Assembly (NCBI GenBank): GCA_034722015.1
Contig: JAYENI010000088.1
Span: forward strand, 30,574-94,573
Direction: 5' to 3'
Origin: Pseudomonadota bacterium
GTDB lineage: Bacteria; Pseudomonadota; Gammaproteobacteria; JAJDOJ01
DNA length: 64,000 nt
The notes below the pieces were generated by a model. That model had not been told where the DNA came from. It was given only the letters and a program-made list of their open reading frames with translations, and did no database searches. Positions 14,153 to 57,520 of the stretch are shown here, piece by piece (position 1 is the stretch's first letter; each line of letters opens with the position of its first letter). Made by a program: the position numbers and the translations under genes.

Positions 14153-14157
14153 AAACC

Positions 14158-26344: not shown

Positions 26345-26348
26345 CAGG

Positions 26349-26480: not shown

Positions 26481-26503
26481 CGGCTGGCTGCCGGCGTTGC
26501 AAG

Positions 26504-27862
26504 TCATTCGAGTGATCGCAGATGGTCGATCGCCTCGATCAACCGGTTTGCGGTAAGCACCTTGAGTTTTCCGCTGCTGCTCCTGGGGGCGTTTGCCCCG
26601 GGGACGAGGGCATAGCGGAAACCGTGTGTCTCGGCCTCCGCCAGCCGCTCCTGACCGTTGGGCACGGGCCGGATTTCCCCCGCAAGGCCGAGTTCCCCGA
26701 AGACGACCAGGTCAGCAGGCAGGGGCCGGTCCCGGAAGCTGGACAGCGCGGCCAGCACAACGGCCACATCGGCCGCCGTCTCGGTCACGCGGACGCCCCC
26801 CACCACGTTCACGAAGACGTCCTGATCGACCATCGGTATGCCGCCGTGGCGGTGCAGTATGGCGAGCAGCATCCCGAGTCGGTTCTGGTCGAGGCCAACC
26901 GAGACCCGCCTGGGGTTGGCGAGGTGGCTCTCGTCCACCAGCGACTGTATCTCCACCAGCATGGGGCGGCTCCCCTCCCGCGTCACGACGATGACGCTCC
27001 CCGACACCGGCGCCTCGTGCCGGGAAAGGAAGATCGCGGAGGGGTTGCCCACTTCCCTGAGCCCCGATTCGCTCATCGCGAACACACCGATTTCGTTGAT
27101 CGCGCCGAACCGGTTCTTGACCGCGCGCAGGATCCGGTATCGCCCTCCCGGGTCCCCCTCGAAGTAGAGTACCGTATCCACCATGTGTTCGAGCACCCGG
27201 GGGCCGGCCAGCGCCCCCTCCTTGGTGACGTGTCCGACGAGAAAGATGGTCGTGCCGCTGGTCTTGGCGAACCGTACGAGTCGGGCCGCGCTTTCCCTTA
27301 CCTGGCCGACGGATCCGGGTGCCGACTGAAGGTTGTCCGAGAACAGGGTCTGGACCGAGTCGATCACCGCGAGGCGGGTACGCTCGCGGGCCAGTACTTC
27401 GATGATCCGCTCCACGCTGGTTTCGGTGAGCAGTCTGAGATGCGGCGCCTCGAGCCCCAGTCTTCGGGAACGCAGGGCGATCTGTCCGGCCGATTCCTCC
27501 CCGCTGACGTAGAGATTCGAGTGCTGGGCGACCGTGGCGAGCATCTGCAGCAGGAGTGTCGATTTACCGATGCCGGGGTCACCACCGATCAGAATCACCG
27601 AGCCTTCGACGATGCCCCCGCCGAGCACCCGGTCGAGTTCCGCGATGTGGCTTGGAACGCGGGGTTCCTCACCGGAAGTGACCGACGAAAGCGCCACCAC
27701 GGCGGTGTTCCCGGACCCGGTCCAGCCGCCACGCCGGTCTTGCCGTGCAGGCGCGATCTCCTCGATGACGTTCCATTCCCCGCAGTCGGTGCACTGTCCG
27801 GACCACTTGCTATGCGATGCCCCGCACGAGCCGCATTGATAGGCTGGTTTCGTCCTGGCCAT
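26504..27862 (-). CDS. radA: DNA repair protein RadA/Sms
   Basis: N-terminal zinc finger YQCGSCGASHSKWSGQCTDCGEW, Walker A GDPGIGKST, Lon-like C-terminal domain. Confidence 0.95.
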   Translation of the reverse strand: MARTKPAYQCGSCGASHSKWSGQCTDCGEWNVIEEIAPARQDRRGGWTGSGNTAVVALSSVTSGEEPRVPSHIAELDRVLGGGIVEGSVILIGGDPGIGKSTLLLQMLATVAQHSNLYVSGEESAGQIALRSRRLGLEAPHLRLLTETSVERIIEVLARERTRLAVIDSVQTLFSDNLQSAPGSVGQVRESAARLVRFAKTSGTTIFLVGHVTKEGALAGPRVLEHMVDTVLYFEGDPGGRYRILRAVKNRFGAINEIGVFAMSESGLREVGNPSAIFLSRHEAPVSGSVIVVTREGSRPMLVEIQSLVDESHLANPRRVSVGLDQNRLGMLLAILHRHGGIPMVDQDVFVNVVGGVRVTETAADVAVVLAALSSFRDRPLPADLVVFGELGLAGEIRPVPNGQERLAEAETHGFRYALVPGANAPRSSSGKLKVLTANRLIEAIDHLRSLE

Positions 27863-27970
27863 GGTCTGCTCAGTTTCGGGTGTTACGGGCTGTCGTCATA
27901 CAGTGGTTCCCGGATCGTCGAACGGCGCGGGCAGGATTCGTTCCCGAACCACCGCTCGCGTCGGCGTTTC

Positions 27971-29245
27971 TCAGGAACCTTTGGTTTTTCGCCACTTCGG
28001 TCGTATCCGGACGGTAATTACCGCGTTGGCCTTTGTCTGTATCACCTCTACGGGATAGCCATTGATCATGAGACTGGTACCCGGCGCGGGGATGAACTCC
28101 ATGTGTTCCGTTACAAGACCGTTGATCGTGCGGGGTCCGCTGTCCGGAAGTTGCCAGCCCAGGCTGCGATTGAGATCCCGGATGTGTGTGCCGCCGTCCA
28201 CGATATAGCTGCCGTCGCCCTGCGGCAGGATATCCTTGTCGTAGGCGCTGGGATCGCTGGTGAATTCCCCGACAATCTCTTCCAGCAGGTCCTCCAGGGT
28301 AACGAGTCCCTGGATGTCGCCGTATTCATCAACGACGAGCCCGGAACGTTGCCTTCCCATCCGGAAATTGAGTAACTGCCGGGAAAGGCTCGTACCTTCC
28401 GGGATGAAGTGCGGATCACCAATGGCCTTCTCCAGTTCCTCGGGCGTCAGTTCGTCGCGGGACAACAGCGGAAGAACCTTGCGGACGTGGAGAAATCCCG
28501 CCACGTTGTCGATGCTGCCCCGATACACGGGAATGCGGCTGAAATGACCGTCGTGGAGTTCAGTGAGAACCTGCTCCCAGTCATCTTCCAGATCGATGCC
28601 GGTAATCTCGTTACGCGGCACCATGATGTCCTGGACGATCGCCTTTTCCAGGTCGAGAATCCCGACCAGCATCTCGCGGTGCTCCCTGGGAATCATGCCC
28701 CCGGCCTCGGTGACGACCACCCGAAGTTCTTCGCGTGAGAGGGCATGACTGTCTGCCCCCTCCGGGGAAACGCCGAACAGCCTGATAAGACCCGAGGAGA
28801 CCTTCGTCAGCAACCAGACAATGGGGTAGAGAAACCGGGACAGCGGGGTGTACACCCAGGCGGCTGGAAAGGCGAACTTTTCCGAATGCACCGCCGCCAG
28901 TGTCTTCGGCGTGATCTCCGCAAAGATCAGCAGCGTCAGCGTCAGTACCCCGGTGGCAATGGCGATACCGGCATCTCCGTACAGTCGATAGCCGAGATAT
29001 GTCGCCACCTGGGTAATGACAATGTTGACGAAATTGTTCCCCAGCAGGATCAGTGTGATCAGGCGGCCGGGGTTTTCCAGCAGTTGCTGCGCCCTTTCCG
29101 CGCCCCCGTGTCCGGTCCGCGCCAGGTGGCGAAGCCGGTAACGGTTCAGGGCGATCAGCGCCGTTTCTGAACCGGAAAAGAACGCTGACAGCAGGAACAG
29201 TGCGAAAAGGGCGAGGAACAGTGTACTGAGAGGCAGGGTATCCAA
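27971..29245 (-). CDS. CNNM/DUF21-CBS-CorC_HlyC family transporter (CorC/HlyC-like)
   Basis: N-terminal DUF21 TM domain, tandem CBS, C-terminal CorC_HlyC; 424 aa. Confidence 0.85.
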   Translation of the reverse strand: MDTLPLSTLFLALFALFLLSAFFSGSETALIALNRYRLRHLARTGHGGAERAQQLLENPGRLITLILLGNNFVNIVITQVATYLGYRLYGDAGIAIATGVLTLTLLIFAEITPKTLAAVHSEKFAFPAAWVYTPLSRFLYPIVWLLTKVSSGLIRLFGVSPEGADSHALSREELRVVVTEAGGMIPREHREMLVGILDLEKAIVQDIMVPRNEITGIDLEDDWEQVLTELHDGHFSRIPVYRGSIDNVAGFLHVRKVLPLLSRDELTPEELEKAIGDPHFIPEGTSLSRQLLNFRMGRQRSGLVVDEYGDIQGLVTLEDLLEEIVGEFTSDPSAYDKDILPQGDGSYIVDGGTHIRDLNRSLGWQLPDSGPRTINGLVTEHMEFIPAPGTSLMINGYPVEVIQTKANAVITVRIRPKWRKTKGS

Positions 29246-30405: not shown

Positions 30406-31101
30406 ATGTACCGACTGCTGCGCCTGTTTCGAACCTCGATCGGCAGCAAGCTGATGATGGCTGTCAGCGGCCTGGTACTGGTCGGGTTCGTGACGGGGCA
30501 TCTTGTCGGTAACCTGAAGGTCTTCCAGGGACAGGAGGCAATCAACGATTACGCAGCCTGGCTTCAGGGACATCCCCTGTTGTGGGGGATCCGTCTGACG
30601 ATTCTCGCGGTCTTCGCACTGCATGTCTACACGGGGATACGACTCGCCCGCGAGAACAGCGCCGCGAGACCCCGTCGGTACGCCGTTCGCACCGTTGTCG
30701 ACACCGGGTTTGCCGCCCGCCATATGCTCTTCAGCGGACTGACGGTCCTGGCCTTCGTGATCTATCACCTGCTGCACCTGACGATAGGGGTGATCCAGCC
30801 AGAGTACGCCGGTCTGCTTGACCGGGCGGGCCGCCCGGACGTCTACACACGCCTGGTTCTCGGACTGTCAAACCCCTGGCTGGCGGCAATCTACGCAACT
30901 GCCGTCGTCCTGGTGGGACTACATCTATGGCACGCCGTACGCAGCATGCTGCAGACCCTCGGGCTGGGACACGACGCCTGGCGACGCGCAACCGACGTTG
31001 GAACCGGCGTCTTCAGCACCCTGGTCGTTGCCGGGTTCCTGTCCATGCCCGTAGCGGCGCAACTCGGCTGGCTGAGCGTACCGCTCACGGTGCCACGATG
31101 A
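30406..31101 (+). CDS. sdhC: succinate dehydrogenase / fumarate reductase diheme cytochrome b subunit (type B, five-helix)
   Basis: 231 aa with conserved His in helices ([31 protein letters not shown]); stop overlaps the sdhA start. Confidence 0.75.
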
Positions 31102-33017
31102 GTGTGCGGCTCGATGCGCGTGTGCCGGATGGCGCCCTGGAAGACAAGTGGAACCACCGCCTGGACGCACTCAAACTGGTGAGCCCGGCCAATCGGCGAA
31201 AATATCGTGTGCTCGTGGTCGGTTCCGGACTTGCCGGTGCGTCGGCGGCAGCCACGCTGGCCGAACTTGGTTACCAGGTGGAGTGTTTTACCTTTCACGA
31301 CAGCCCGCGACGCGCGCACTCGGTCGCCGCGCAGGGCGGGATCAACGCGGCAAAGAACTACCAGAACGACGGGGACAGTGTCTACCGCTTGTTCCATGAC
31401 ACGATCAAGGGGGGCGATTTCCGGGCGCGCGAGGCGAACGTGTATCGCCTGGCTCAGGTCAGCAACCGCATCATCGACCACTGCGTGGCGCAGGGGATTC
31501 CGTTTGCGCGCGAGTACGGCGGGCTGCTGGACAACCGTTCCTTCGGTGGCGCTCAGGTCTCGAGAACTTTTTACGCGCGCGGCCAGACCGGACAGCAGTT
31601 GTTACTGGGGGCCTACGGGGCGTTGAACCGGCAGATCCACGCCGGACGTGTTCGGGTCCACACCCGCTGCGAGATGCTCGATCTCGTTCTGGTGGACGGC
31701 AGGGCGCGGGGGATCGTCACCCGCGACCTGGTGAGCGGTGGCATCGGACGGCATGCCGGACACGCGGTGGTGCTCGCCACCGGTGGTTACAGCAACGTCT
31801 TCTTCCTGTCCACCAACGCCCTGGGTTGCAACGTGACGGCCACCTATCGGGCCTGCAAGCGCGGCGCCTTGTTCGCGAACCCGTGTTTTACCCAGATTCA
31901 TCCGACCTGCATCCCGGCCAGTGGCGCGCACCAGTCCAAGCTCACCCTGATGTCGGAGTCCCTGCGCAATGACGGTCGCATCTGGGTACCGGTAAATCCC
32001 GGGGAAACGAGGGTGGCCGACAAGGTCCCCGAAGGTGAGCGTGACTACTATCTCGAGCGCCGTTATCCGGCCTTTGGCAACCTGACGCCCCGGGATATCG
32101 CGTCCCGGGCGGCCCGGCAGGTCTGCGATGAGGGGTGTGGTATCGGACCGACCGGGCGCGGCGTCTATCTGGATTTCGCGCAAGCCATTGGCCGTCTGGG
32201 GCGCGCTGCGATTGAGCAGCGTTACGGTAACCTGTTCAGCATGTATGAGCGCATCACCGGGGAAGACCCCTATCGGGTGCCGATGCGTATCTATCCGGCG
32301 GCGCACTACACCATGGGTGGTCTGTGGGTGGACTACGATCTGATGAGTAACGTCCCGGGGTTGTTTGTTATCGGCGAGGCCAACTTTTCGGACCATGGGG
32401 CGAACCGGTTGGGGGCGAGCGCGCTCATGCAGGGCCTGGCCGACGGTTACTTCATCCTGCCCCAGACCCTTGGCCACTATCTGGCCGTTGAGAGACCGGA
32501 CCTGCCGGATCCCGGTTGCGAATCCTTCAGTTCGGTGGAAGAAGACGTCGCGGTGCGTACGGCAAGACTGCTGGACATCGGTGGCGATCGCCCGGTCGAG
32601 AGCTTTCACAGGGAATTGGGCGAAATCATGGATTCGTGTTGTGGCATGGCCCGGAACGAAGCGGGGCTCAGAGAGGCGCTGGTTGCCATTCCCACGCTGC
32701 GTGAGGCGTTCTGGCGTGAGGCCTGCGTGTGCGGGAACGGGGAGGAGTTCAATGTGTCTCTGGAGCGGGCGGGACGCGTGGCCGATTTTCTGGAGTTCGC
32801 CGAGTTGCTTTGCCATGATGCGCTGGCGCGGGAGGAGTCCTGCGGCGCGCACTTCCGGGAGGAGCACCAGACCGGGGAAGGCGAGGCGGTTCGTGATGAC
32901 AAACACTTTTCGCACGTGGCGGCGTGGGAATACCGGGGGCAGGGTGTCGCGCCGCGTTGTCACCCCGAGCCCCTGACATTCGAGACGGTGCACGCTGTAA
33001 CCCGGAGTTACAAATGA
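31098..33017 (+). CDS. sdhA: succinate dehydrogenase / fumarate reductase flavoprotein subunit
   Basis: FAD-binding [12 protein letters not shown], covalent-FAD region [12 protein letters not shown], about 639 aa; start ATG overlaps the sdhC stop. Confidence 0.95.
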
Positions 33018-45526: not shown

Positions 45527-46534
45527 CTACACACCGTAGTAGTCCCGGTACCATTCGACGAATCTCCGAACGCCCGTTTCTACCGGCGTTCTCGGTTTGT
45601 AGCCGACATCGTGAACCAGATCCGAAACATCGGCATAGGTGTCTGGTACGTCGCCGGGCTGGAGCGGAAGCAGGTTTTGCACGGCCTTGCTCCCCAGACA
45701 ATCCTCCAGCACCTCAATGTAGTGCCTCAATTCCACGGGCTGGTTGTTGCCGATGTTGTACAGTCGCCACGGAGCCATACTGGTGGCGGAATCGGGCGCG
45801 TCACCGTTCCAGTCGGGGTTGGGCTCGGGGATCGAATCCAGGGTTCGAATAACACCCTCGACGATATCGTCTATATAGGTAAAGTCCCTGCGGTGGTTCC
45901 CGTAGTTGAAGACATCGATGGGTTCACCAGCGAGGATCCTGGCGGTAAACAGGAACAGCGCCATGTCCGGTCGGCCCCAGGGTCCGTAGACGGTAAAGAA
46001 CCTCAGTCCAGTGGTCGGAATTCGGTAAAGGTGGCTGTATACGTGCGCCATCAGCTCATTGGCCTTCTTGCTCGCGGCATACAGGCTGAGGGGATGATCT
46101 ACGTTGTCGTGAACGGAAAACGGCATGTGCGTGTTGGCGCCGTAGACCGAACTGCTCGAGGCATAGACCAGGTGCTCCACCTGGTGGTTTCGGCAGCCTT
46201 CGAGCACGTGGAGGAAGCCAACCAGGTTGCTGTCCACGTAAGCGTGCGGATTTTCGATTGAATATCGGACACCCGCCTGAGCGGCCAGGTTGACCACACG
46301 CTGCGGCTCATGGGCCGTGAACACCCGCTCGATGGCTGTGCGGTCCTCCAGGCTGGCGCGGACGTCGGTAAACGTCTCGTAGGCCCGGGTGCGCTCTAGT
46401 CGGGCCTCCTTGATTCGAATATCGTAGTAGTCGTTGAGATTGTCGATTCCAACAACCTCGTCCCCGCGCTCCAGGAGCCTGAGGGACAGTGCCGAACCGA
46501 TGAAACCCGCAGATCCCGTCACAAGTACCTTCAT
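45527..46534 (-). CDS. NAD-dependent epimerase, UDP-glucuronate 4-epimerase-like (extended SDR)
   Basis: [16 protein letters not shown] Rossmann motif, YAASK catalytic motif, about 335 aa, similar to the Cap1J/LpsL/WbpP group. Confidence 0.8.
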
Positions 46535-46950
46535 ATCCGCTCCCTGTTGCAATTGTCGGTTATTCACGCCAGCGTACAGGCGGGTGGCTATCGTACCAAA
46601 CCGGGTGGTTTCGGGTTCGGAGCTCGGGTACTAGAGTAGGGTGCCAGGGGGCAGAGTCTCGGGTACTGGGGGCAGAGTGTGGCGACAAACTGACGGACTG
46701 ATGCGTCGCAGCCACAATTGTGAGAAGATACGGGGAAACGAGAAATGGGAGTCTCGGCAACTCCCTGGCCGGGGCTAGAATCGAAGAACCCGAGTGATTC
46801 CAAAAGGTTAGTTTCACCAGGCGCCATTGTGAAAGTGCCCGGGACTCAAGGTTCCCGACGCGCTGCCACGATTGATCGATGTCACGCGATTTTGTCGACC
46901 TGGTGCGCATTAGTTAAGGTTGCGAGTGGTAAACTTGCCGATATTTCTGT

Positions 46951-48312
46951 ATGAGAAATAATGCCCGGGGCCGGAAATTGCGCACGATATGGTCCACACG
47001 GTTCATGAACAGCAGGGAACAAAGTATGGGTATTCTCAGTTTATTGCAGAGCAGTCGCGGAGAAGCTTACGGGGTCGCAGGTATTTCAATTCCTGACCGG
47101 TTGAAGAATCTGGCTCCTGCTTCCCTTGCGGCCACGCTAATCACCGTTCTTGCTCCTTCGCTGGTCTGGGCGGAGGCTTGGGAACTCGAACCCGAGTTCA
47201 GTATTGGTGGTAATTACAACACCAATTTCCGGCTGTCGACGACGGATCCCGACGAAGTCGGGACCGGGCGAGTCGCCGGTGCGCTCAAGTTCAGCCGTCT
47301 CACCGAGTCCTTCGAGCTTGCGGGACTTGCGCGACTGGATTTCGTCGGTTTCGTCGGGGATACCGACAGACTGTCCAACACGGGCAATCAGTTGTTCGGG
47401 TTCGAGTCGAAGAAAAAATTCGAACGCTCCAATATCGGTCTTGACGCGTTGTGGAAGCGTGACACGGTACTCAGGAGCATCAGGGTGGTGGGAGACCCCG
47501 ACAACCCGGCCATTGAGCCTGACCAGTCGGTTGACGACAACATCGTGAACGAGAACATTCGTCGCAACGCGATCGATGTTCGCCTCCCGTACAAGTATGA
47601 TCTCACGGAACGAGATAGATTGGGCGCGAGGTTGCGGTTTAATACTACCCTCTATGAGGAGAACGATTTTCTGGATGATTACCGGCAAGGTTCGCTGAGG
47701 CTCGATTACAACCACGAACTGACGGAAAAGGACAATATTATCGCCCTGTTCCAGACATCGCGATTCGACTCCGACAGCGGGCGCACGACGGATAACTACG
47801 AACTGCAGGCCGGATACCGGTACGCCTTTTCGGAGACGACGAGCGCCGGATTTACCGCGGGCGGGCGCTATACGGTCTTCGACAACCCCGGTTCCGGGGA
47901 TGACGGCACCAATACAGGTTTTGTGGCCCGGTTGCAGGCCTCGAAGATTACGGGTAAGGCGCGGTACGATGTCAGGCTTGAGAGAAACCTCTCCCCCAGT
48001 GGTGTTGGCGATCTGGTAGAGACCGATGAACTGAACGCCAACATGAGCTACCAGCTCCAAGAGAGATGGACTTTCGCGATTAGGTCACGATTGTTCGAGA
48101 ACGAAAATATCGACAACCCCGAGTCGGGCAGCAACCGGCGGTTCTTTTCGCTGCTTCCCGTTTTGTCGTATCGGTTTACGCCAGACTGGCGCGTGGAAAC
48201 GGCCTATCGGTATCTGAGACAGAAGCGGTTCAGCGAACCGACCAGCGCCGACAGCCACACGGTGTTCCTTAATGTGCGATGGACGAAAGTTACGCCGATC
48301 GATACGCTTTAA
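46951..48312 (+). CDS. outer-membrane beta-barrel protein, PEP-CTERM/EPS-locus-associated type (TIGR03016-like)
   Basis: Signal peptide (AATLITVLAPSLVWA), alternating beta-strand pattern, aromatic-rich C-terminus; the first gene of the polysaccharide locus; exact start uncertain (46951 to 47026). Confidence 0.55.
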   Translation: MRNNARGRKLRTIWSTRFMNSREQSMGILSLLQSSRGEAYGVAGISIPDRLKNLAPASLAATLITVLAPSLVWAEAWELEPEFSIGGNYNTNFRLSTTDPDEVGTGRVAGALKFSRLTESFELAGLARLDFVGFVGDTDRLSNTGNQLFGFESKKKFERSNIGLDALWKRDTVLRSIRVVGDPDNPAIEPDQSVDDNIVNENIRRNAIDVRLPYKYDLTERDRLGARLRFNTTLYEENDFLDDYRQGSLRLDYNHELTEKDNIIALFQTSRFDSDSGRTTDNYELQAGYRYAFSETTSAGFTAGGRYTVFDNPGSGDDGTNTGFVARLQASKITGKARYDVRLERNLSPSGVGDLVETDELNANMSYQLQERWTFAIRSRLFENENIDNPESGSNRRFFSLLPVLSYRFTPDWRVETAYRYLRQKRFSEPTSADSHTVFLNVRWTKVTPIDTL

Positions 48313-48475
48313 GCTGGACGCTGCCCCCCAGGGTGGAGTCAGTCGTTCGGGGGGCCAGCCCTCAGGACGTGTCTCGAAGGGATATGACATAACACCCGGA
48401 GGCATGGCTTTTGCCGATGGTTGGAAAAATTAGGTGACTCCTTACCATTTCTCGGGTGACGAACGCAGGTAACAA

Positions 48476-50248
48476 ATGGGAAAGCAGGATCGCCAGGCGG
48501 GGTACGAGTTACGAGAGTATGTCGGCATACTACGGCGCAGAAAGCGGGAAATTTTCCTGCCTGCCGCAGGCATACTTTTGCTGGCGGTGGTCGTAGCATT
48601 TATGTTGCCCGTCGTTTACCGGGCCCCGGTAACCATCCTGATCGAGAGCCAGGACGTCCCGGAGACCTTTGTCGCCGCGACAATGCGTGAAGAATTGTCG
48701 GAGCAGATGCAGAGTGCCATGTTGCGCGTGCTGGACCGGGACACGTTGCTTGGAATTGTCGAGTCCAACAATCTTTTCCTCGACGAGACAGACGAGCTGC
48801 TGCCGGCGCAACTGGCCGGGATGTTGCGCAAATCCATCGGGATGGAGATCGCACAGTTCCAGGCGGTGAAATCTGAAGATACCGCATCGGCCACGATGGC
48901 GATCCAGATCTACGCTGATCTCGATGAACCGGTCGCCGCGGCCGCTGTATCAAACGAAGTTGCGAGCCTGTTTCTCAGTGAAGACCGTGCCAAGCGCAAC
49001 GAGGAAGCGGAATCGGTCTATAATTTCCTGCAGGCCGAGGCCGAAAAGCTAAACACGGTCATTGAGGAACTGGAGCGGAAACTTGCGACTTTCAAGGTTG
49101 GAAACATCAACCAGCTTCCGGAACTCAAGGACTTCAACATGCGCCTCTATGAGCAGACAGGGAACAAACTGGAGCGCACGGAAGAGGAAATTCGTTCTCT
49201 GGAGGACAGAAAACTCAATCTGGAATCCCAGATGGCCGTCACGAATCCATACGGCACCCTGTACGCGGAGCCTGGCAAGACCCTGCTTTCCGGTCCGGAG
49301 CGTCTGCGCACTCTGCTGACCGAGTACCTCAGGGTATCTTCCCAATATACCCCCAATCACCCTGACGTCATCAAGCTTCGAAGGGAAATCAATTCACTGG
49401 AAGGCCAGGTGGGTGGCTCGAGCAGGGCGAGTAGCCTGGTCAACAAACTGACAGTGACGCGCGAGCAACTGTCCGAACTAAAACAGAAATACACCAGAGA
49501 ACATCCCGACATCGTGAAGCTGAACAACAGTATTCCTTTGCTTGAAAGGGAATTGCGGGAATTTACCGAGGCTCAGGGCATGGCTGGAGGCGGAGTGGCG
49601 AGCCCGACAAATCCTGCATATGTCTCGCTGAAAACACAGCTTGATACCATTAGTGCCAATCTCAGGGCGAAGTACGAACAGAAAACGAGTCTTCAGTCCA
49701 AGCTGAACGACTACGAGGAACGCCTCAGCCAGACGCCGATTGTCGAGCGGGAATATCTTTCGTTGAGCCGTGACTACGATAATGCGATGGGTAAATATAA
49801 GGAAATCAAGGACAAGCAGCTCGAAGCGCAATTGGCGCTGGGCCTTGAGGGTGACTCGAAAGCACAGCGATTGACCCTGGTTCGGAGGGCCAATGTGCCA
49901 ATAGCGCCGTACAGCCCAAATCGGCCGGCATTGTTTGCAATCGGATTGGTGCTGGGTCTGATTGTCGGAGTGGGCGTCGCGACTATCGCCGAATACAACG
50001 ACGAGACCGTCAGAGGCAAGCGGGGTGTTTTGGATGTCTTTGGTGCGCCTCCCCTGGCGACGATTCCCTACATTGAGAACAGTGTCGACGTCATAGCAAG
50101 GTCCAGACGAACCAGAATGATCCTGGTTGTTGCTGGAGTGGTTTTCACGGCGGTGCTTGCCTATGCCTACTACTTGTGGTCTTCACAGGCTGTCGTAGAA
50201 AAAGCGGATAGTACATCAGGGAATGCGTATAGTTCCCTGCGTGGCTAG
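48476..50248 (+). CDS. polysaccharide chain-length determinant / co-polymerase protein (Wzz-like, PEP-CTERM-locus subfamily-like) with a long coiled-coil periplasmic domain
   Basis: N-terminal TM after YELREYVGILRRRK, extensive coiled-coil, second TM near the C-terminus (LFAIGLVLGLIVGVGVATIA). Confidence 0.75.
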   Translation: MGKQDRQAGYELREYVGILRRRKREIFLPAAGILLLAVVVAFMLPVVYRAPVTILIESQDVPETFVAATMREELSEQMQSAMLRVLDRDTLLGIVESNNLFLDETDELLPAQLAGMLRKSIGMEIAQFQAVKSEDTASATMAIQIYADLDEPVAAAAVSNEVASLFLSEDRAKRNEEAESVYNFLQAEAEKLNTVIEELERKLATFKVGNINQLPELKDFNMRLYEQTGNKLERTEEEIRSLEDRKLNLESQMAVTNPYGTLYAEPGKTLLSGPERLRTLLTEYLRVSSQYTPNHPDVIKLRREINSLEGQVGGSSRASSLVNKLTVTREQLSELKQKYTREHPDIVKLNNSIPLLERELREFTEAQGMAGGGVASPTNPAYVSLKTQLDTISANLRAKYEQKTSLQSKLNDYEERLSQTPIVEREYLSLSRDYDNAMGKYKEIKDKQLEAQLALGLEGDSKAQRLTLVRRANVPIAPYSPNRPALFAIGLVLGLIVGVGVATIAEYNDETVRGKRGVLDVFGAPPLATIPYIENSVDVIARSRRTRMILVVAGVVFTAVLAYAYYLWSSQAVVEKADSTSGNAYSSLRG

Positions 50249-50553
50249 ATATCCATGAAAACAGCGCTTGTATAGCGACAAAACGACGAAAGAGGCATCC
50301 CTTTCTTTGGGGTGGATATAGGATTCTGGTACGTTCGGTGCGGTTGTGCCGGATTGAGGATGTTTGATGGCCATAGTGTCCACCGAATATGCAACTGTTT
50401 CGTCCCCGTGTATGACGTGATAGGAAAGACATAGGGCAGGATCGGCGGTAGCAATTGCGGGTGTAGCGCGTCCCGGTTTCAATAAACCTGTTGTGCAATT
50501 TATCAGGTTTATACTCGGTGGAATTGACGATCAAGGTGTAACTGGAAAGTATT

Positions 50554-51360
50554 ATGGACAGCATTTCAAAAGCAATGTCGCTCGCGAAGAGTAACATCAA
50601 GCGATCTCCAGTGGCGCTGAGAGAGGAAGAAGAAAAGAATATACGATACTCCAAGACCCGGAACTACAGCATTCGCGAAGATGTTCTAAAAGAGAATCGT
50701 TTGCTTAGCGAGTCCTCGGACAAGAGGGTCGTGGACGCATTCCGTTTGTTGCGAACACGTGTGATGAGTCGGATGCAGCAAAACCAGTGGAATACGCTTG
50801 GAATAACAAGCTGTAGGCCGAATGAGGGGAAATCCCTGACCGCGATCAATCTCGCGATAAGTATCGCGATGCGCCACAACTACACAGTCATGATGGTTGA
50901 CACTGATCTGAGACGACCCAGCATCCACTCGTTTTTTGGTATTACTCCGAAATACGGGCTCGCAGATTACCTTATCAGGGACGTGCCAATCGAAGAGGTC
51001 CTGGTTCACCCGGGGATTGAACGTTTTGTCATGCTCCCAAGTGGGGGATCTCTTGATGCGCAGTATCATTCTTCGGAGTATCTTGCTTCGCCGAAGATGG
51101 CGCAACTGGTCGACGAACTCAAGACGCGTTACCCCTCCCGGTTGGTTCTCTTCGATCTTCCTCCCATCCTGATTGGTGATGACGTCGTTGCGTTTTCCAC
51201 CTATCTGGACGCGATCATGCTGGTCGTCGAGGACGGAAAGACACGTGAGGGGGAACTGGCTCACGCGCTTGATCTTGTTTCCGAGGTAGAGGTCATCGGC
51301 ACTGTTCTTAACAAGTCGGATGAACTGACGCAGGATAATCACTACCAGGGTTATTACTAG
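50554..51360 (+). CDS. tyrosine-kinase-like P-loop ATPase of the CpsD/CapB/EpsG family (separate cytoplasmic partner of the Wzz-like protein)
   Basis: Degenerate Walker A (PNEGKSLTAINLAISIA), Walker A' (VMMVDTDLRRP), Walker B (LVLFDLPP); C-terminal Tyr-rich tail YQGYY. Confidence 0.7.
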   Translation: MDSISKAMSLAKSNIKRSPVALREEEEKNIRYSKTRNYSIREDVLKENRLLSESSDKRVVDAFRLLRTRVMSRMQQNQWNTLGITSCRPNEGKSLTAINLAISIAMRHNYTVMMVDTDLRRPSIHSFFGITPKYGLADYLIRDVPIEEVLVHPGIERFVMLPSGGSLDAQYHSSEYLASPKMAQLVDELKTRYPSRLVLFDLPPILIGDDVVAFSTYLDAIMLVVEDGKTREGELAHALDLVSEVEVIGTVLNKSDELTQDNHYQGYY

Positions 51361-51559
51361 TGTTGACCGTCCCCTTTCGGTACGCTCAACAGTAGCAGAA
51401 CCCTTGTACCTGGACATGGATCGATGTTCTGCAATCTGGAAGGAAGCAAGGACTCATGAATCACCGTATCCGGAAGGGATATGCGTGAGGCGCCATAGAC
51501 GAATTGACAGGGTCTAGCATTCCCCTTCCGCTCCGATCCCGAACACCCGGTAGAAAAAT

Positions 51560-52333
51560 ATGAAAGCCGTTTTGCTGGCTGGCGGTCTTGGCACGCGCCT
51601 GTCCGAGGAAACTTCGATTCGCCCGAAACCCATGGTAGAAATAGGCGGTAAGCCTATCCTGTGGCATATCATGAAGATCTACCATGGTCACGGAATCAAG
51701 GAATTCATTGTGTGCTGTGGTTACAAGGGCTTCGTTATCAAGGAGTACTTTGCGAACTACAGGCTGTATATGTCAGACGTGACATTCGATATTCGGGCGA
51801 ACGAGATGAAAATCCATCAGAGCGATGCCGAGGATTGGAAAGTGACCCTGGTCGACACCGGTGTAGACACAATGACGGGTGGAAGGATGCGGCGGGTGCA
51901 AGACTACCTTGGTGACGAAACATTCCTGATGACCTACGGTGACGGTGTCGGTGATATCGATATTGGAAAACTGATTTCGTTTCACCGGGAGCAAGGTACG
52001 CTCGCGACATTGACTGCGGTACAGCCGTCCGGGAGATTCGGTGCCTTTACACTCACGGATGATCAGAAAAAGATCGACCATTTCCGGGAGAAGCCAAGAG
52101 GTGACAATGCGTGGATCAACGGCGGGTATTTCGTCCTGGAGCCGGAAGTCCTCGACTACATCGAGGGTGATGATACCGTCTGGGAAAGAGATCCTATGGA
52201 ACGACTTGCTTCCGAGGGGCGACTATCCGCCTATCAGCATCACGGTTTCTGGCATCCGATGGACACACTGCGGGACAGGGACAATCTGGAATCAATCTGG
52301 GAAAGTCGCGATGCACCCTGGAAAAACTGGTAA
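51560..52333 (+). CDS. rfbF: glucose-1-phosphate cytidylyltransferase (CDP-glucose pyrophosphorylase)
   Basis: MKAVLLAGGLGTRL...PKPMVEIGGKPILWHIM, 257 aa, RfbF/DdhA family. Confidence 0.9.
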   Translation: MKAVLLAGGLGTRLSEETSIRPKPMVEIGGKPILWHIMKIYHGHGIKEFIVCCGYKGFVIKEYFANYRLYMSDVTFDIRANEMKIHQSDAEDWKVTLVDTGVDTMTGGRMRRVQDYLGDETFLMTYGDGVGDIDIGKLISFHREQGTLATLTAVQPSGRFGAFTLTDDQKKIDHFREKPRGDNAWINGGYFVLEPEVLDYIEGDDTVWERDPMERLASEGRLSAYQHHGFWHPMDTLRDRDNLESIWESRDAPWKNW

Positions 52334-52338
52334 CGGCA

Positions 52339-53532
52339 GTGACGGATTTCCTGGTTATCGGGGGCGGGATTATCGGCATCAGTATTGCCCGGGAACTGAA
52401 ACGAACCTACGCCGACGCATCGGTTGAAGTTGTAGAGAAGGAGTCCTCGGGAGGCGAGCATGCGAGTGGCCGCAACAGTGGTGTACTGCACGCAGGATTC
52501 TACTATACGGCAGACAGTCTGAAGGCCCGTTTTACAAGAGACGGCAACCGGGAACTCACGGAGTATTGTGAAAGTAGAAAAATCCCGCTGAACAAATGCG
52601 GGAAGCTTGTCGTGGCGAAGAACGAGACCGAAGACGTGATGCTGGACGAGTTGATGGTACGCGGCAGAAAAAATGGTGTTCTGCTCGATGAGGTGACGGC
52701 CGAGGAGGCGAAGGAGATCGAACCGAGGGTGAAGACTTACCGTCGCGCCCTGTTTTCGCCCACGACATCATCTGCTGATCCCCGGCAGGTACTTGCCGCC
52801 ATGGAGGCGGATGCCAAACGGGAAGGAATTCGGATTAGCTACTCGGTGAGCTTTGTCTCCAGGACGCGGGACGGGATTCGGGTGTCTGACGGCGTACGTA
52901 ATGTAGGATATGTCGTCAATGCGGCAGGCTTGTATGCGGACCGTATCGGTAAGGAGTTCGGATTTTCCGAAAACTACACGATTCTTCCCTTCAAGGGACT
53001 CTATCTGAGTTCGGATGAGCCTCCTGGGGCGTTTCGAACGAATATTTATCCAGTTCCTGACCTCAGAAATCCGTTTCTTGGCGTGCATTTTACGGTGAAG
53101 GCAGACGGACGTGTAAAGATCGGGCCCACGGCAATACCTGCCTTGTGGCGGGAACAGTACAGTGGATTCGAAAATTTCAATTCGGGAGAGGCATTCGAGA
53201 TGGCATTGCGTTCCGCGAGCCTGCTATTTTCCTCGGGTTTCGGATACTCGGGTCTTGCACTGTCGGAAGTCAGGAAATATTCAAGACGGTACATGGTGAA
53301 ACTTGCGGGAGAGCTTGCGACCGGTATCGAAGTTTCCGCCTTCCGGAAATGGGCGAGACCTGGAATCAGGGCCCAGCTTCTGGACACGCGGACGCGACGT
53401 TTGGAGATGGATTTCGTGCTCGAAGGAGACTCGCGATCGATGCATGTGCTGAACGCGGTGTCCCCAGGCTGGACGTGTTCCTTGCCGTTTTCCGCCCATG
53501 TCGTCAAGGCAATCGATAAAAAACTGGGATAA
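52339..53532 (+). CDS. FAD-dependent oxidoreductase of the L-2-hydroxyglutarate oxidase (LhgO/YgaF) / glycerol-3-phosphate-oxidase-like family
   Basis: N-terminal dinucleotide motif VIGGGIIGISIA..E, 397 aa; embedded between rfbF and the sugar epimerase genes. Confidence 0.75.
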   Translation: MTDFLVIGGGIIGISIARELKRTYADASVEVVEKESSGGEHASGRNSGVLHAGFYYTADSLKARFTRDGNRELTEYCESRKIPLNKCGKLVVAKNETEDVMLDELMVRGRKNGVLLDEVTAEEAKEIEPRVKTYRRALFSPTTSSADPRQVLAAMEADAKREGIRISYSVSFVSRTRDGIRVSDGVRNVGYVVNAAGLYADRIGKEFGFSENYTILPFKGLYLSSDEPPGAFRTNIYPVPDLRNPFLGVHFTVKADGRVKIGPTAIPALWREQYSGFENFNSGEAFEMALRSASLLFSSGFGYSGLALSEVRKYSRRYMVKLAGELATGIEVSAFRKWARPGIRAQLLDTRTRRLEMDFVLEGDSRSMHVLNAVSPGWTCSLPFSAHVVKAIDKKLG

Positions 53533-53551
53533 GAAAAAGAGGTAGTCGCTG

Positions 53552-54595
53552 GTGAATATCGTTATAACGGGGAACATGGGTTACATTGGTCCGACTCTGG
53601 TGAGAATGCTTCTGTCATCCGAACCAGATGCAAACATTTATGGGATCGATTCCGGCTTTTTTGCGCATTGCCTGACCGGAGTCAGATCGTTTCCGGAACA
53701 CAACCTAAAGGCGCAGTTCTTCCGGGACATACGGGATATCGACGAGACCCTGCTGCAAGGCATGGATGGCGTTATTCATCTGGCAGCGATTTCAAACGAC
53801 CCAATGGGAAAAGCCTTCGAGGAAGTGACGGCAGACGTCAATTACCGCGCAAGTGTCAAACTGGCAAAGTTGGCAAGGAAGGCTGGTGTTGGGCGGTTTG
53901 TATTTGCATCGAGTTGTAGTGTCTACGGTTATGCGGAGGGCGAAGCACGGGATGAGCGTTCCGAGCTGAATCCTCTTACGGCGTATGCCCGTTCCAAGAT
54001 AGCCACGGAAAAGGACATCGAGCCGCTGGCGAGTGAGGAATTCGTTATCACCAGCCTGCGATTCCCCACTGCGTGCGGCATGAGCGACAGGCTTCGCCTG
54101 GATCTGGTTCTCAATGATTTCGTCGCCTCTGCTGTCTCAACAGGAAAGATCAGGATCCTTAGCGACGGAACGCCGTGGAGACCATTGATCGATATAAAGG
54201 ATATGAGCCGTTCGATGAGCTGGGCGGTTGAACGCAATCCCGAAGACGGGGGGAATTTTCTTGCGGTGAACGTGGGACGCACCGAGTGGAACTATCAGGT
54301 CAGGGACGTAGCCGAGGCCGTAAGGGCGGAAATGCCACACGTGGAGATTGAAGTCAACAAGGATGCCATGCCTGACAAGCGATCCTATCAGGTTGACTTT
54401 GGCATGTATGCGGGTCTCGCACCGGACCACCTGCCGGAAGTGGATCTCGCCCAGTCGATTCGGGAGCTCAGGAAAGGACTGACCGATATGGGGTTCGACA
54501 ACGGTGAGTTTCGAAATTCGGACTTCATGCGACTGAAGGTACTTACGGGCCTGCGTGAGCGCGGGATGCTGGATGAGGAATTACGTTGGCAATAG
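53552..54595 (+). CDS. NAD-dependent epimerase/dehydratase-family protein (extended SDR, nucleotide-sugar modifying)
   Basis: ITGNMGYIG Rossmann motif, YARSK catalytic YxxxK; 347 aa. Confidence 0.75.
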   Translation: MNIVITGNMGYIGPTLVRMLLSSEPDANIYGIDSGFFAHCLTGVRSFPEHNLKAQFFRDIRDIDETLLQGMDGVIHLAAISNDPMGKAFEEVTADVNYRASVKLAKLARKAGVGRFVFASSCSVYGYAEGEARDERSELNPLTAYARSKIATEKDIEPLASEEFVITSLRFPTACGMSDRLRLDLVLNDFVASAVSTGKIRILSDGTPWRPLIDIKDMSRSMSWAVERNPEDGGNFLAVNVGRTEWNYQVRDVAEAVRAEMPHVEIEVNKDAMPDKRSYQVDFGMYAGLAPDHLPEVDLAQSIRELRKGLTDMGFDNGEFRNSDFMRLKVLTGLRERGMLDEELRWQ

Positions 54596-54722
54596 CACAG
54601 TCGATTTTGGTGTTCCGGTTTTCCGATGTTGGTTGAGGCGTGTTTCTTTTCTGGGCAAGGCCCCATCTGACCCGCCAATGTGTCGTGAGTGCGGGAGAAA
54701 TCCGGACTCAGTGAGATAAGCA

Positions 54723-55253
54723 ATGAAATTTACAGAGACCCGATTGCCCGGCGCATACGTCGTGGAGCCCGAACCGCTCGTTGATGAGAGGGGGTTCTTC
54801 GCCCGTGCCTGGTGCAGCAGCGAATTCGAGAAGAATGGGCTGGTGAACCGGTCGGTACAGGCGAACATGTCGAGCACCAGGAAAAAGGGAACGATGAGGG
54901 GACTGCATCATCAGGTCCCTCCTCATGCCGAGACCAAGTTTTTTCGGTGTACCAGAGGCAGTCTGTTCGATGTCATCGTGGACCTGCGCAAGGATTCCCC
55001 CACCTTCCGGCAATGGACGGGATTGGAATTGTCCGCGGAAAATCACGTGGCCATCTATGTGCCGGAAGGATTCGCGCACGGTTATCTTACGCTGGAAGAC
55101 GAAACAGACGCCTATTACCAGGTTTCAGAGTTCTATACGCCGGGCGCCGAACGCGGTTTCAGATATGATGACCCGGCTTTCGGCATAGATTGGCCGATAG
55201 AACCCCGTGTCGTGTCGGACAAGGACCTGTCATGGGAACCCTTCGGGTGTTGA
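54723..55253 (+). CDS. dTDP-4-dehydrorhamnose 3,5-epimerase-family (RmlC-like cupin) sugar-nucleotide epimerase
   Basis: RGFFARAW....RGLHHQ...K.FRCTRGSLFDVIVDLR...YVPEGFAHGY, typical RmlC motifs; 176 aa. Confidence 0.85.
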   Translation: MKFTETRLPGAYVVEPEPLVDERGFFARAWCSSEFEKNGLVNRSVQANMSSTRKKGTMRGLHHQVPPHAETKFFRCTRGSLFDVIVDLRKDSPTFRQWTGLELSAENHVAIYVPEGFAHGYLTLEDETDAYYQVSEFYTPGAERGFRYDDPAFGIDWPIEPRVVSDKDLSWEPFGC

Positions 55254-55303
55254 GGCGACGAGCCCTCGATGGAGATCCGCATAAATCATGATGGAATGGA
55301 AGG

Positions 55304-56140
55304 ATGTCTAGCGAAAATGACTTGAATGACGTAGCGGTAATCAGACCTCCGAAGAGCTGGGAGCTTCTCGATTTCAGGGAGTTGCTCGCCTATCGCGATC
55401 TTTTTTACTTTCTGGTGTGGAGGGACATCAAGGTTCTCTACGCCCAGACGGTACTGGGATTCGCATGGGCCATACTTAACCCGCTGATACAAATCATCAT
55501 TTTCAGCGTAATTTTCGGAAAGGTTGCGCGCCTGGATACGGGAGGAATTCCGTATGTTCTTTTCTCTACGGTTGCCATCATCCCGTGGACCTATATGTCT
55601 GAGGCAATGTCGGCGTCAAGCCAGAGCCTGGTCACCGGGCAGAATATGCTGGGAAAGGTCTATTTTCCCAGATTGATTTTTCCGCTGACCCCGGTTCTGG
55701 CAAAGCTGGTTGATTTCAGTATTTCTCTGTTGCTCCTCGTTGGCGTGATGATCTACTACAAGATTACCCCGTCGATCAATCTTGTCTACCTGCCCGTATT
55801 TGTGCTGCTGATGATGGCCATTCCCGCCGGTGTCGGGTTGTGGATGTCGTCTCTGGCCATTCGATTCAGGGATGTCAAGTTCGCCATGCCGTTTGTCATG
55901 CGCATGCTGATCTATACCGCCCCGATTCTCTATTCCGCGGAGAAGATCCCGGAGCAGTACCGGTTGCTTTACTCTCTCAACCCGATCGTTGGTGTGATCG
56001 AAGGTTATCGGGCCTGCCTGCTCGGGACGGAAATGCAGTGGGAGTACATCCTTCCGGGGGTGGTGACGGGGGTATTGTTACTGGTAAGCGGTGCAATGTA
56101 TTTCCGGCGCATGGAACGTGTGTTCGTCGACGTCATTTGA
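55304..56140 (+). CDS. wzm: ABC-2 type polysaccharide/O-antigen export permease
   Basis: 6-TM ABC-2 permease, about 278 aa, paired with the downstream ATPase. Confidence 0.85.
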   Translation: MSSENDLNDVAVIRPPKSWELLDFRELLAYRDLFYFLVWRDIKVLYAQTVLGFAWAILNPLIQIIIFSVIFGKVARLDTGGIPYVLFSTVAIIPWTYMSEAMSASSQSLVTGQNMLGKVYFPRLIFPLTPVLAKLVDFSISLLLLVGVMIYYKITPSINLVYLPVFVLLMMAIPAGVGLWMSSLAIRFRDVKFAMPFVMRMLIYTAPILYSAEKIPEQYRLLYSLNPIVGVIEGYRACLLGTEMQWEYILPGVVTGVLLLVSGAMYFRRMERVFVDVI

Positions 56141-56197
56141 TCGTAACAGGAGGCGGCGGTTTCCCGGAACGCGGGGCGTCGCACGTTTGGTAAGAAG

Positions 56198-57520
56198 ATG
56201 AAAAAAGATCTCGCCATCGAAGTTGAAAATATCAGCAAGATCTACCGAATCGGAACGCGCGAAAAGTCGAATGACAACTTCGCCGGTGCGATGTTCGATT
56301 ATGTGAGAAGTCCGCTTGAGAATTTCAGAAAATACAAATCATTGTATGATTTCTCAGACGTCGAACAGTCGACCGGGGAAGATGAAGACCCGTCGGTGCT
56401 TTGGGCGTTGCGGGACGTCTCGTTCGAAATTCCCAGAGGAGAGGTCGTCGGTGTGATCGGTACAAATGGTGCCGGCAAGTCTACGCTACTGAAGATCCTT
56501 TCCAGGATTACACCGCCGACGCGTGGACAGGTCGGTATCCGCGGCAGGGTGAGCAGCCTTCTGGAGGTTGGCACCGGTTTTCACCAGGAATTGACGGGAC
56601 GCGAAAACGTCTACCTTAACGGCACTATTCTCGGTATGCGCAAGCGCGAGGTCGACAGGAAGTTCGACGAAATCGTCGACTTCTCCGGAGTGGACAAGTT
56701 CCTGGATACCCCGGTGAAGCGCTATTCGAGCGGCATGCGGGTACGTCTGGCGTTTGCGGTCGCAGCGCATCTCGAGCCGGAGATATTGATCATCGACGAA
56801 GTGCTCGCGGTGGGCGATGCCACTTTTCAGCAGAAATGCATGAACAAGATGCAGGACGTTGGTCAGCAGGGACGCACAGTGCTGTTCGTGTCTCACAACA
56901 TGGCTGCCGTTACGAGACTCTGTCCGCGGGCGATCCTGCTCGATCAAGGCGGTCTGGTCGAGGACGGGCCTTCGAACAGGGTCGTAGAGCACTATCTCAA
57001 GACCGGGCTGGGAACGACACCCGTGAGGGCGTGGGACGATTTGACGAACGCGCCGGGAGATGACGTCGTCAGGTTACGCCGTATCAACGTATCCACCGAG
57101 CAGGGGGAGTCTCCGGACAGCGTCGATATCAGGCGGCCGTTGGGATTGCGGATGGAATACCGAGTGCTGAAGGAAGGAAAGGTACTGTTTCCGTACTTCA
57201 TCGTCACCAATGAACAGGGCGTCATGGTATTTTCCACGATCGACCAGGATCCCGAATGGCTGGGGCGTCCGCGTCCCCCGGGGGATTACGTCAGTACGGC
57301 CTGGATTCCGGGAAATCTGCTCAGCGAAGGAATTTTCTACGTCAACCCCGTGATGCGGGCACCGGAGCGCAGAATCAGGCACTTCAACGAGAAGGACGCG
57401 GTGGCTTTTAACATCATCGATCCGGCTGAGGGCGACTCCTCGCGCGGGCACTGGACCGGACGGCTCAGCGGCGTTGTCCGCCCCATGCTCAGATGGGAAA
57501 CTGAATTTACGCCAGCCTAG
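56198..57520 (+). CDS. wzt: polysaccharide/O-antigen ABC transporter ATP-binding protein with a C-terminal substrate-binding (Wzt_C-like) domain
   Basis: Walker A GTNGAGKST, signature YSSGMRVRLAF, Walker B ILIIDE; about 190-aa extra C-terminal beta-rich domain. Confidence 0.85.
   Translation: MKKDLAIEVENISKIYRIGTREKSNDNFAGAMFDYVRSPLENFRKYKSLYDFSDVEQSTGEDEDPSVLWALRDVSFEIPRGEVVGVIGTNGAGKSTLLKILSRITPPTRGQVGIRGRVSSLLEVGTGFHQELTGRENVYLNGTILGMRKREVDRKFDEIVDFSGVDKFLDTPVKRYSSGMRVRLAFAVAAHLEPEILIIDEVLAVGDATFQQKCMNKMQDVGQQGRTVLFVSHNMAAVTRLCPRAILLDQGGLVEDGPSNRVVEHYLKTGLGTTPVRAWDDLTNAPGDDVVRLRRINVSTEQGESPDSVDIRRPLGLRMEYRVLKEGKVLFPYFIVTNEQGVMVFSTIDQDPEWLGRPRPPGDYVSTAWIPGNLLSEGIFYVNPVMRAPERRIRHFNEKDAVAFNIIDPAEGDSSRGHWTGRLSGVVRPMLRWETEFTPA

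Follow-up and report, generated by a model that had tools for sequence, protein, structure and literature searches.

We analysed a 64,000-nucleotide window from a gammaproteobacterium of the JAJDOJ01 lineage (positions 30,574 to 94,573 of the forward strand of contig JAYENI010000088.1, assembly GCA_034722015.1) and propose that a FAD-dependent enzyme encoded at 52339–53532, among genes for a CDP-sugar, recycles L-2-hydroxyglutarate (L-2-HG) formed by the product of the next gene, an extended short-chain dehydrogenase/reductase (SDR). This SDR would be a C4-dehydrogenase resembling Cj1427 of Campylobacter jejuni, and the CDP-hexose pathway would open with an oxidation and not with a 4,6-dehydration. 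From the comparisons of sequences and gene neighbourhoods given below, we assign this reading a probability of about 0.6.

Family and substrate pocket of the flavoenzyme

The flavoenzyme gene (plus strand, GTG start, 397 amino acids) begins at 52339, exactly 5 nucleotides after the end of rfbF at 52333, and both the open reading frame and the gap given in an earlier sequence-only reading of this DNA were correct. The rfbF gene (51560–52333, plus strand) is unambiguously assigned as a glucose-1-phosphate cytidylyltransferase, the enzyme that yields CDP-D-glucose, with a full-length match to the equivalog TIGR02623 (444.2 bits; cut-off 300.25) and to the Pfam family NTP_transferase. The flavoenzyme matches the Pfam family DAO (PF01266; E 4.4e-53, 181.5 bits, residues 3–381), and its N-terminal FAD motif of the GxGxxG type reads VIGGGIIG. 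Its best NCBIfam match is NF008726, the L-2-hydroxyglutarate oxidase (LhgO) equivalog, covered over its full length (3–390 of 389) with 302.3 bits (cut-off 299), and the second, type 2 glycerol-3-phosphate oxidase (GlpO), stays at 111.1 bits, below its cut-off of 460. On NF008726 the relatives of the enzyme score 312–333 bits and Escherichia coli LhgD scores 604. The closest PDB entry is the Drosophila L-2-HG dehydrogenase (L2HGDH) 8W75 (E 5.5e-52), E. coli LhgD is 34% identical over the full length (E 1e-60), and a sequence-identical protein in an NCBI Pseudomonadota metagenome-assembled genome (MAG) carries the name L-2-hydroxyglutarate oxidase.

The ligands of 2-oxoglutarate in the Drosophila enzyme (dmL2HGDH) are Ser88, His92 (the catalytic base), Tyr289, Leu299, His302 and Arg393, and its activity is lost or impaired when the side-chain contacts are mutated (PMC10726252). 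In our alignment they correspond to S47, H51, Y237, L247, H250 and R344 of the flavoenzyme, all six identical, and they are invariant in 92 of 92 homologues from the loci that we fetched (37 linked to sugar genes and 55 unlinked). Because the ligand-binding residues are conserved, L-2-HG is the predicted substrate, and the flavoenzyme is most likely a genuine L-2-HG dehydrogenase and not a sugar oxidase. The residue His302, equivalent to H250, is not listed among those conserved in GlpO (PMC10726252). In E. coli the gene order is glaH-lhgD-gabD-gabT; this canonical glutarate context is absent from the window, where the neighbours are rfbF, the SDR gene, rmlC, wzm and wzt, and genomic context is not a defining trait of the LhgO protein family.

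A Cj1427-like SDR in place of a 4,6-dehydratase

The sequence-only reading placed two epimerase/SDR genes downstream of the flavoenzyme gene. The first of them is indeed an SDR gene (53552–54595, plus strand, after a gap of 19 nucleotides), but the second (54723–55253, plus strand) encodes a cupin, an NDP-4-keto-hexose 3,5-epimerase of the RmlC type (PF00908, E 6.9e-63; TIGR01221, 178.4 bits against 155.75), with matches to RmlC structures in the PDB down to E 8e-47. The SDR reached no NCBIfam equivalog cut-off and gave no match at E <= 1e-3 to TIGR02622, the model of CDP-glucose 4,6-dehydratase (RfbG). When RmlB, Gmd, an RfbH equivalog and further pathway enzymes were used as tblastn queries against the whole window, no RfbG or RfbH was found, and likewise no rmlB or rmlD, the sole RmlA-like match being rfbF itself. 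The window therefore holds RfbF alone of the CDP-3,6-dideoxyhexose set RfbF/G/H/I, and the earlier view that this is not a standard CDP-6-deoxyhexose pathway stands.

Alignment of the SDR with RmlB, Gmd, Fcl and RmlD of E. coli showed that the YxxxK motif and the catalytic Ser are present, and Y145 and K149 are invariant among family members. At the acid/base positions of the dehydratases the SDR has S121-C122-S123, in contrast to T-D-E in RmlB and T-S-E in Gmd, so that the stretch SSCSVYG stands where dehydratases have STDEVYG and STSELYG. The residues S120-S121-C122-S123 are invariant in 36 sequences, with Cys where dehydratases bear Asp or Glu. These substitutions support the conclusion that the SDR is not a 4,6-dehydratase, and the alternative named by the sequence-only reading, a bona fide CDP-glucose 4,6-dehydratase, did not hold.

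The closest PDB entries to the SDR are 6VO6 and 6VO8, both by sequence (phmmer, E 1.7e-18) and in a Foldseek search with its AlphaFold model (pLDDT 86.5), where they came first with E 5.7e-19, TM-scores of 0.73–0.84 and 25% identity. According to the Foldseek entry descriptions they represent Cj1427 of C. jejuni, and the chain matches C. jejuni proteins at 96%. The SDR and Cj1427 have in common a motif, R(L/M)RLDLxxNDF, that is absent from the other aligned SDRs. Cj1427 binds NADH so firmly that NAD+ does not displace it, the bound NADH is reoxidised by alpha-ketoglutarate with formation of L-2-HG, and the next enzymes of the pathway are an RmlC-like C3/C5 epimerase and, after it, a C4 reductase (PMC10680097). 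The SDR of the window is accordingly listed here as a proposed CDP-glucose C4-dehydrogenase of this ping-pong, alpha-ketoglutarate-dependent type.

The pair of enzymes might instead shuttle electrons through a different keto acid, the SDR reducing oxaloacetate or pyruvate and the flavoenzyme oxidising L-malate or L-lactate. A faint Pfam signal of Mqo (malate:quinone oxidoreductase) on some members of the flavoenzyme family would fit such a scheme. We consider it very improbable, since the L-2-HG pocket is conserved, including the Arg that binds the C5 carboxylate, L-malate and L-lactate are not substrates of dmL2HGDH (PMC10726252), and the keto acid used by Cj1427 is alpha-ketoglutarate (PMC10680097).

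Linkage of the genes in genomes and metagenomes

The sequence-only reading had suggested a search for the rfbF-flavoenzyme-SDR-rmlC block in other genomes, and the block does recur. Among 80 genome loci that encode proteins 60–66% identical to the flavoenzyme, about 25 carry rfbF, the flavoenzyme gene and the SDR gene together, usually with rmlC and wzm/wzt, and these sugar genes are missing from 55. The carriers are unclassified Gammaproteobacteria, Thiotrichales, Acidiferrobacteraceae, Sulfurifustaceae and Nitrospira. In one contig of 2.67 Mb (L163) the architecture of the window is repeated gene for gene, with an additional DRL_cat/GFO-type oxidoreductase gene (12897–14216) between rmlC and wzm. 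We also scanned metagenomes with the SDR as seed, which is unbiased towards the flavoenzyme, and obtained 57 non-redundant loci with upstream sequence. The flavoenzyme gene lies immediately upstream of the SDR gene in 12 of the 57 and rfbF in 19, and for SDRs at least 64% identical to that of the window the flavoenzyme gene is upstream in 8 of 13. These upstream counts show that the core module is rfbF-SDR-rmlC, with the flavoenzyme as a frequent insert. Both sets of loci also bear out that the linkage to rfbF is conserved and that the placement is not coincidental.

Unlinked relatives of the flavoenzyme in Nitrospira (about 60–68% identical) are found among LepA, CarB, GreA and a BioA-like gene, and the idea that the unlinked loci are cryptic sugar contexts was rejected for Nitrospira, where they are housekeeping loci. 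The unlinked loci of Planctomycetes and Verrucomicrobia (L023, L039) were checked for a hidden sugar context in the same way, with nothing decisive. Linked members and members in housekeeping contexts score alike on the LhgO model (302–333 bits). The linked copies of Nitrospira share a mean of 68% identity with the housekeeping copies of Nitrospira and 60% with the linked copies of Gammaproteobacteria, which points to recruitment of an ordinary LhgO. In the tree of the flavoenzymes, built by neighbour joining without support values, and in the identities, the linked copies track the host lineage. The absence of a sugar-specific clade is thus suggestive, rather than proof, of recruitment of ordinary LhgO proteins within lineages.

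These comparisons bear on the view, put forward in that reading, that the flavoenzyme acts directly on a CDP-sugar, or on the sugar once transferred, and oxidises it to a keto or uronic derivative. The position of the gene inside a sugar operon, the diversity of substrates in the DAO family and a score just above the LhgO cut-off are in its favour, but the full set of L-2-HG/2-oxoglutarate residues is invariant, including H250, the relatives in housekeeping contexts score like the linked copies on the LhgO model, the linked copies do not separate as a sugar clade, and the same type of enzyme accompanies Cj1427 orthologues that act on another sugar nucleotide (see below). A CDP-sugar very probably does undergo an unusual oxidation here, as had been supposed, but the flavoenzyme as its agent is very unlikely. 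The oxidation is better assigned to the Cj1427-like SDR, and the flavoenzyme would recycle the co-substrate of the SDR.

A few loci depart from the usual arrangement. One exception to the usual block is found in a Verrucomicrobiota MAG (L039, 7162–9173), where the flavoenzyme gene comes directly after an rfbF-like gene, a metallophosphoesterase gene and a GlcNAc 2-epimerase-like gene lie downstream of the flavoenzyme gene, and there is no Cj1427-like SDR gene in the vicinity. Locus L102 has two flavoenzyme paralogues (2700–3887 and 5811–6980), 47% and 62% identical to the protein of the window, upstream of the SDR gene. Two loci from peat (L129, 1999–3057; L135, 3782–4828) contain a more distant gene of the DAO family (34% identical) near rfbF.

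Genes that accompany the SDR in related loci

In related loci the SDR gene follows rfbF directly, at the position of rfbG. The genes clustered with it encode RmlC, a TylC3-type C-methyltransferase (PF08421/PF08484), an RfbH equivalog (646 bits against 423), a YerE-like thiamine diphosphate (ThDP) enzyme, second SDRs and a DRL_cat oxidoreductase; the latter two are candidate C4 reductases. RmlC, the TylC3-type methyltransferases, RfbH and YerE all need an NDP-4-keto sugar. A hidden RfbG in the relatives that contain RfbH, which would have moved the SDR to a late step of the pathway, was rejected, since their second SDRs reach 41–48 bits against the cut-off of 278 bits for CDP-4,6-dehydratase. 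Because the clustered enzymes need 4-keto sugars and RfbG is missing, the SDR after rfbF is left as the sole candidate for introducing the 4-keto group in these loci. From the missing dehydratase residues and the linked L-2-HG enzyme we infer that the 6-hydroxyl group may be retained.

In three loci from peat and soil metagenomes (L136, 5851–12332; L113, 1563–5099; L130, 4672–10361), rfbF and the Cj1427-like SDR gene are followed, in this order, by genes for an RfbH equivalog (646 bits), a second SDR and a YerE-like ThDP enzyme or transketolase subunits, and no RfbG is encoded. The arrangement suggests a pathway to 3-deoxy or branched CDP-sugars whose starting point is the dehydrogenase and not a 4,6-dehydratase. 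A TylC3-type C-methyltransferase and an aminopeptidase-like protein with DUF4910, DUF2172 and HTH_47 domains recur as a pair after the SDR or rmlC gene in many related clusters, among them L096 (1159–2400), L093 (9051–10379), L022, L046, L051 and L063.

L2HGDH-family genes beside Cj1427 orthologues

If the flavoenzyme is present in the cluster for the sake of L-2-HG, a similar gene is to be expected beside true Cj1427 orthologues as well, and we examined this prediction. In a search with the Cj1427 chain the top cluster was C. jejuni at 96%, and seven contexts of orthologues outside Campylobacter (66–69% identical) were read, which represent six distinct architectures, with L165 and L167 counted as one. 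Genes for heptose activation (GHMP kinase, SIS isomerase and/or NTP-transferase) are present in six of the seven, and L168 has glycosyltransferase genes only. In the related Bacillota contigs L165 and L167 a DAO gene lies two genes upstream of the Cj1427 orthologue; its product in L165 is 44% identical to the flavoenzyme of the window over the full length and keeps all motifs. A Nitrospirae MAG (L164) has, three genes upstream, a DAO gene of the Bp3253/3DME type (E 3.7e-79), and Bp3253 conserves all substrate-binding residues (PMC10726252). No gene of the DAO/L2HGDH family was found in the other four of the seven contexts. The L2HGDH family is thus represented in two of six architectures, by two subfamilies and in clusters of the GDP-heptose type. 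These orthologues act on a different sugar nucleotide, and the genes beside them give strong support to a functional coupling through L-2-HG. Together with the linked gene of the window, they also lend indirect support to a tightly held NADH in the SDR that alpha-ketoglutarate would reoxidise.

The same observations make it most improbable, more so than any other alternative considered here, that the flavoenzyme is an ordinary metabolic LhgO placed by chance among sugar genes with which it has no functional tie. The protein does look like an ordinary LhgO, and its family is also found in housekeeping contexts. However, the adjacency is shared by dozens of loci that belong to several lineages, in which the gaps are short and the order of the genes varies, and in other phyla a gene of this family is again found, independently, beside Cj1427 orthologues.

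Proposed pathway and its main rival

In the pathway that we propose, RfbF, assigned from its family scores, would make CDP-D-glucose, and the SDR would oxidise it at C4 to CDP-4-keto-D-glucose. By analogy with Cj1427, the SDR would keep its nicotinamide cofactor bound, and the NADH would be reoxidised in place by alpha-ketoglutarate, with L-2-HG leaving the enzyme. The flavoenzyme would then turn L-2-HG back into alpha-ketoglutarate and pass the electrons to quinone or O2. The couple of alpha-ketoglutarate and L-2-HG would in this way serve as a catalytic hydride shuttle, which would pull an unfavourable alcohol oxidation forward and avert product inhibition. The 4-keto sugar would be epimerised by RmlC at C3 and/or C5. 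Because no separate C4 reductase is encoded in the window, the final reduction would fall either to an enzyme whose gene lies outside the window or to the SDR itself in its NADH form, and in the latter case the role of alpha-ketoglutarate and L-2-HG would be one of rescue and not stoichiometric.

This last possibility leads to the main rival of our proposal, in which the SDR is in essence redox-neutral, as an epimerase acting with RmlC or as a non-canonical dehydratase, and is trapped in its NADH form when it occasionally releases its keto intermediate; alpha-ketoglutarate would rescue the trapped enzyme and the flavoenzyme would clear small amounts of L-2-HG. The lack of a separate C4 reductase in the window is consistent with reduction of the epimerised sugar by the SDR, a flavoenzyme gene is absent from many rfbF-SDR-rmlC loci, and L2HGDH is generally seen as a metabolite-repair enzyme (PMC10726252). 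Many related loci, on the other hand, do contain separate candidate reductases (the DRL_cat oxidoreductase or the second SDR), the C-methyltransferase and RfbH of related loci consume the free 4-keto sugar irreversibly, which implies a net oxidation, and Cj1427 itself is a stoichiometric ping-pong dehydrogenase (PMC10680097). We regard this rival as unlikely, though clearly less so than the other alternatives.

Several observations weigh against the dehydrogenase and L-2-HG recycling that we favour. The margin of the flavoenzyme above the NF008726 cut-off is only 3 bits. The SDR and Cj1427 are only 25–29% identical, the lead of Cj1427 over TunA and GalE-type structures in Foldseek is small, and it is from this distant relative that we infer tight binding of NADH and use of alpha-ketoglutarate by the SDR. 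The invariant Cys122 beside the catalytic Ser might have an acid/base role, for example in epimerisation. The RmlC-type gene passes TIGR01221, a dTDP-specific equivalog, and a CDP-sugar is thus only its putative substrate. Most rfbF-SDR-rmlC loci lack a linked flavoenzyme gene, which is therefore dispensable in cis. Finally, the window encodes no C4 reductase, no glycosyltransferase was found at the locus or among the scanned open reading frames of the window (20868–64000), and no glycosyltransferase of family GT2, of the type found in related loci, occurs anywhere in the window.

A broader version of the proposal is that the locus represents a widespread and undescribed entry into CDP-hexoses, in which a Cj1427-like CDP-glucose 4-dehydrogenase replaces the 4,6-dehydratase and an operon-encoded shuttle of alpha-ketoglutarate and L-2-HG leads to the respiratory chain, the same arrangement being found beside Cj1427 orthologues. 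We hold this version to be evenly poised between right and wrong.

Organization of the export locus

Two genes of an ABC exporter for polysaccharide follow rmlC on the same strand as the genes before them. A Wzm-type ABC-2 permease is encoded at 55304–56140 (plus strand; PF01061, E 1.8e-15; NCBIfam matches of the Wzm/KpsM type all below cut-off), 50 nucleotides after rmlC, and a Wzt-type ATPase with a C-terminal domain at 56198–57520 (plus strand; PF00005, E 2.3e-23; weak match to Wzt_C). Both genes are conserved beside the block in related loci. Upstream of rfbF there are three plus-strand genes of the kind associated with XrtA/PEP-CTERM systems, each with its NCBIfam match below cut-off: an outer-membrane protein (46951–48312; TIGR03016), a Wzz/GNVR chain-length determinant (48476–50248; TIGR03007) and a tyrosine autokinase-like ATPase (50554–51360; TIGR03018). 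This trio also precedes rfbF in L001, L022, L028, L046, L080, L150 and L163. The locus at 46951–57520 joins, in this way, export genes of the Wzz/tyrosine-kinase and XrtA/PEP-CTERM-like kinds with a Wzm/Wzt ABC exporter.

The G+C content is 0.51–0.55 across 46951–57520 and 0.60–0.64 in the flanks, and this difference suggests horizontal acquisition of the region. In a scan for promoters and terminators, sites were no more frequent than expected by chance and none lay between the genes, with no terminator-like site in any gap from rfbF to wzt.

The tblastn search of the window revealed a single other extended SDR (45527–46567, minus strand), which flanks the export genes. It matches PDB entry 5U4Q at E 8e-143 and also UDP-glucuronate 4-epimerases (6ZL6), and is probably a UDP-glucuronate 4-epimerase outside the CDP pathway. 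It was rejected as the missing C4 reductase on account of this match, and it shares only 23–26% identity with the second SDRs found in related loci. Further away, the window encodes a CCG-domain protein (20868–22259), an AMP-binding protein with a PP-binding domain (23473–25812, minus strand), two large open reading frames with no Pfam match (25747–28375) and a 696-amino-acid flavoprotein of the fumarate reductase/succinate dehydrogenase type (30927–33017).

Comparison with known systems and significance

The system closest to the one proposed is that of Cj1427, Cj1430 and Cj1428 in C. jejuni, the pathway of GDP-D-glycero-L-gluco-heptose. An extended SDR oxidises C4 without 6-deoxygenation and is followed by an RmlC-like C3/C5 epimerase, as we suppose for the window; here, however, the substrate would be a CDP-hexose made by RfbF, and there is no adjacent C4 reductase. 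The operon of the window includes a gene for a predicted L-2-HG dehydrogenase, and for C. jejuni the papers that we consulted on Cj1427 mention none.

A second parallel is found in Pseudomonas aeruginosa. WbpB binds NADH tightly, converts 2-ketoglutarate to D-2-hydroxyglutarate (D-2-HG) and is inhibited by this product; deletion of D2HGDH lowers the amount of lipopolysaccharide (LPS) O-antigen, and WbpB relies on D2HGDH for full LPS synthesis (PMC8651671). In the pairs WbpB–D2HGDH and SerA–D2HGDH, as in our model, bound NADH is reoxidised by 2-ketoglutarate, which a flavin-dependent 2-hydroxyglutarate dehydrogenase regenerates. The WbpB system differs in the D-enantiomer, in the unrelated D2HGDH family and in its sugar 3-dehydrogenase of the GFO/IDH/MocA type. 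D2HGDH (PA0317) is moreover treated as a general enzyme of D-2-HG catabolism (PMC8651671), whereas the flavoenzyme and SDR genes of the window are adjacent. In our best model the coupling would therefore be the L-enantiomer counterpart of WbpB/D2HGDH, fixed in one operon.

LhgO/LhgD of glutarate and lysine catabolism in E. coli and Pseudomonas putida, and the eukaryotic L2HGDH, belong to the same family as the flavoenzyme and have identical substrate-binding residues. Their bacterial context is glaH(csiD)-lhgD-gabDT and that of the flavoenzyme a polysaccharide operon with CDP-sugar and ABC-exporter genes; a glutarate hydroxylase supplies L-2-HG to LhgD, and a sugar dehydrogenase would supply it here. 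The pathways to CDP-3,6-dideoxyhexoses (RfbF/G/H/I with RfbS/E/J; AscE/AscF; YerE/YerF) likewise start with RfbF, and the likeness extends in related loci to an added RfbH, RmlC-like epimerase or YerE-like ThDP enzyme, but the Cj1427-like SDR replaces RfbG and the intermediates may keep their 6-hydroxyl group.

Among the open-access papers searched we found none that connects LhgO or L-2-HG with gene clusters for CDP-glucose or O-antigen, and none on the disposal of the L-2-HG made by Cj1427. The presence of L2HGDH genes beside Cj1427-type enzymes in unrelated bacteria and with two sugar nucleotides offers a concrete answer to the question of this disposal and, if the proposed pathway is right, would for the first time provide evidence from living genomes that the need of Cj1427 for alpha-ketoglutarate, observed in vitro, is physiological. 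For annotation, the lesson is that an LhgO within a sugar cluster has a reason to be there, and that a large family of genes named NAD-dependent epimerase/dehydratase after rfbF are probable CDP-glucose 4-dehydrogenases. Such a function predicts unusual CDP-sugars in Nitrospira and in sulfur-oxidising Gammaproteobacteria, possibly with the 6-hydroxyl group in place, and the sugars could include L-hexoses and 3-C-methyl, 3-deoxy or C4-branched hexoses. These data suggest that 2-hydroxyglutarate is not only a metabolic error and that polysaccharide synthesis can employ it deliberately as a redox carrier, mirroring the D-2-HG coupling of WbpB and SerA.

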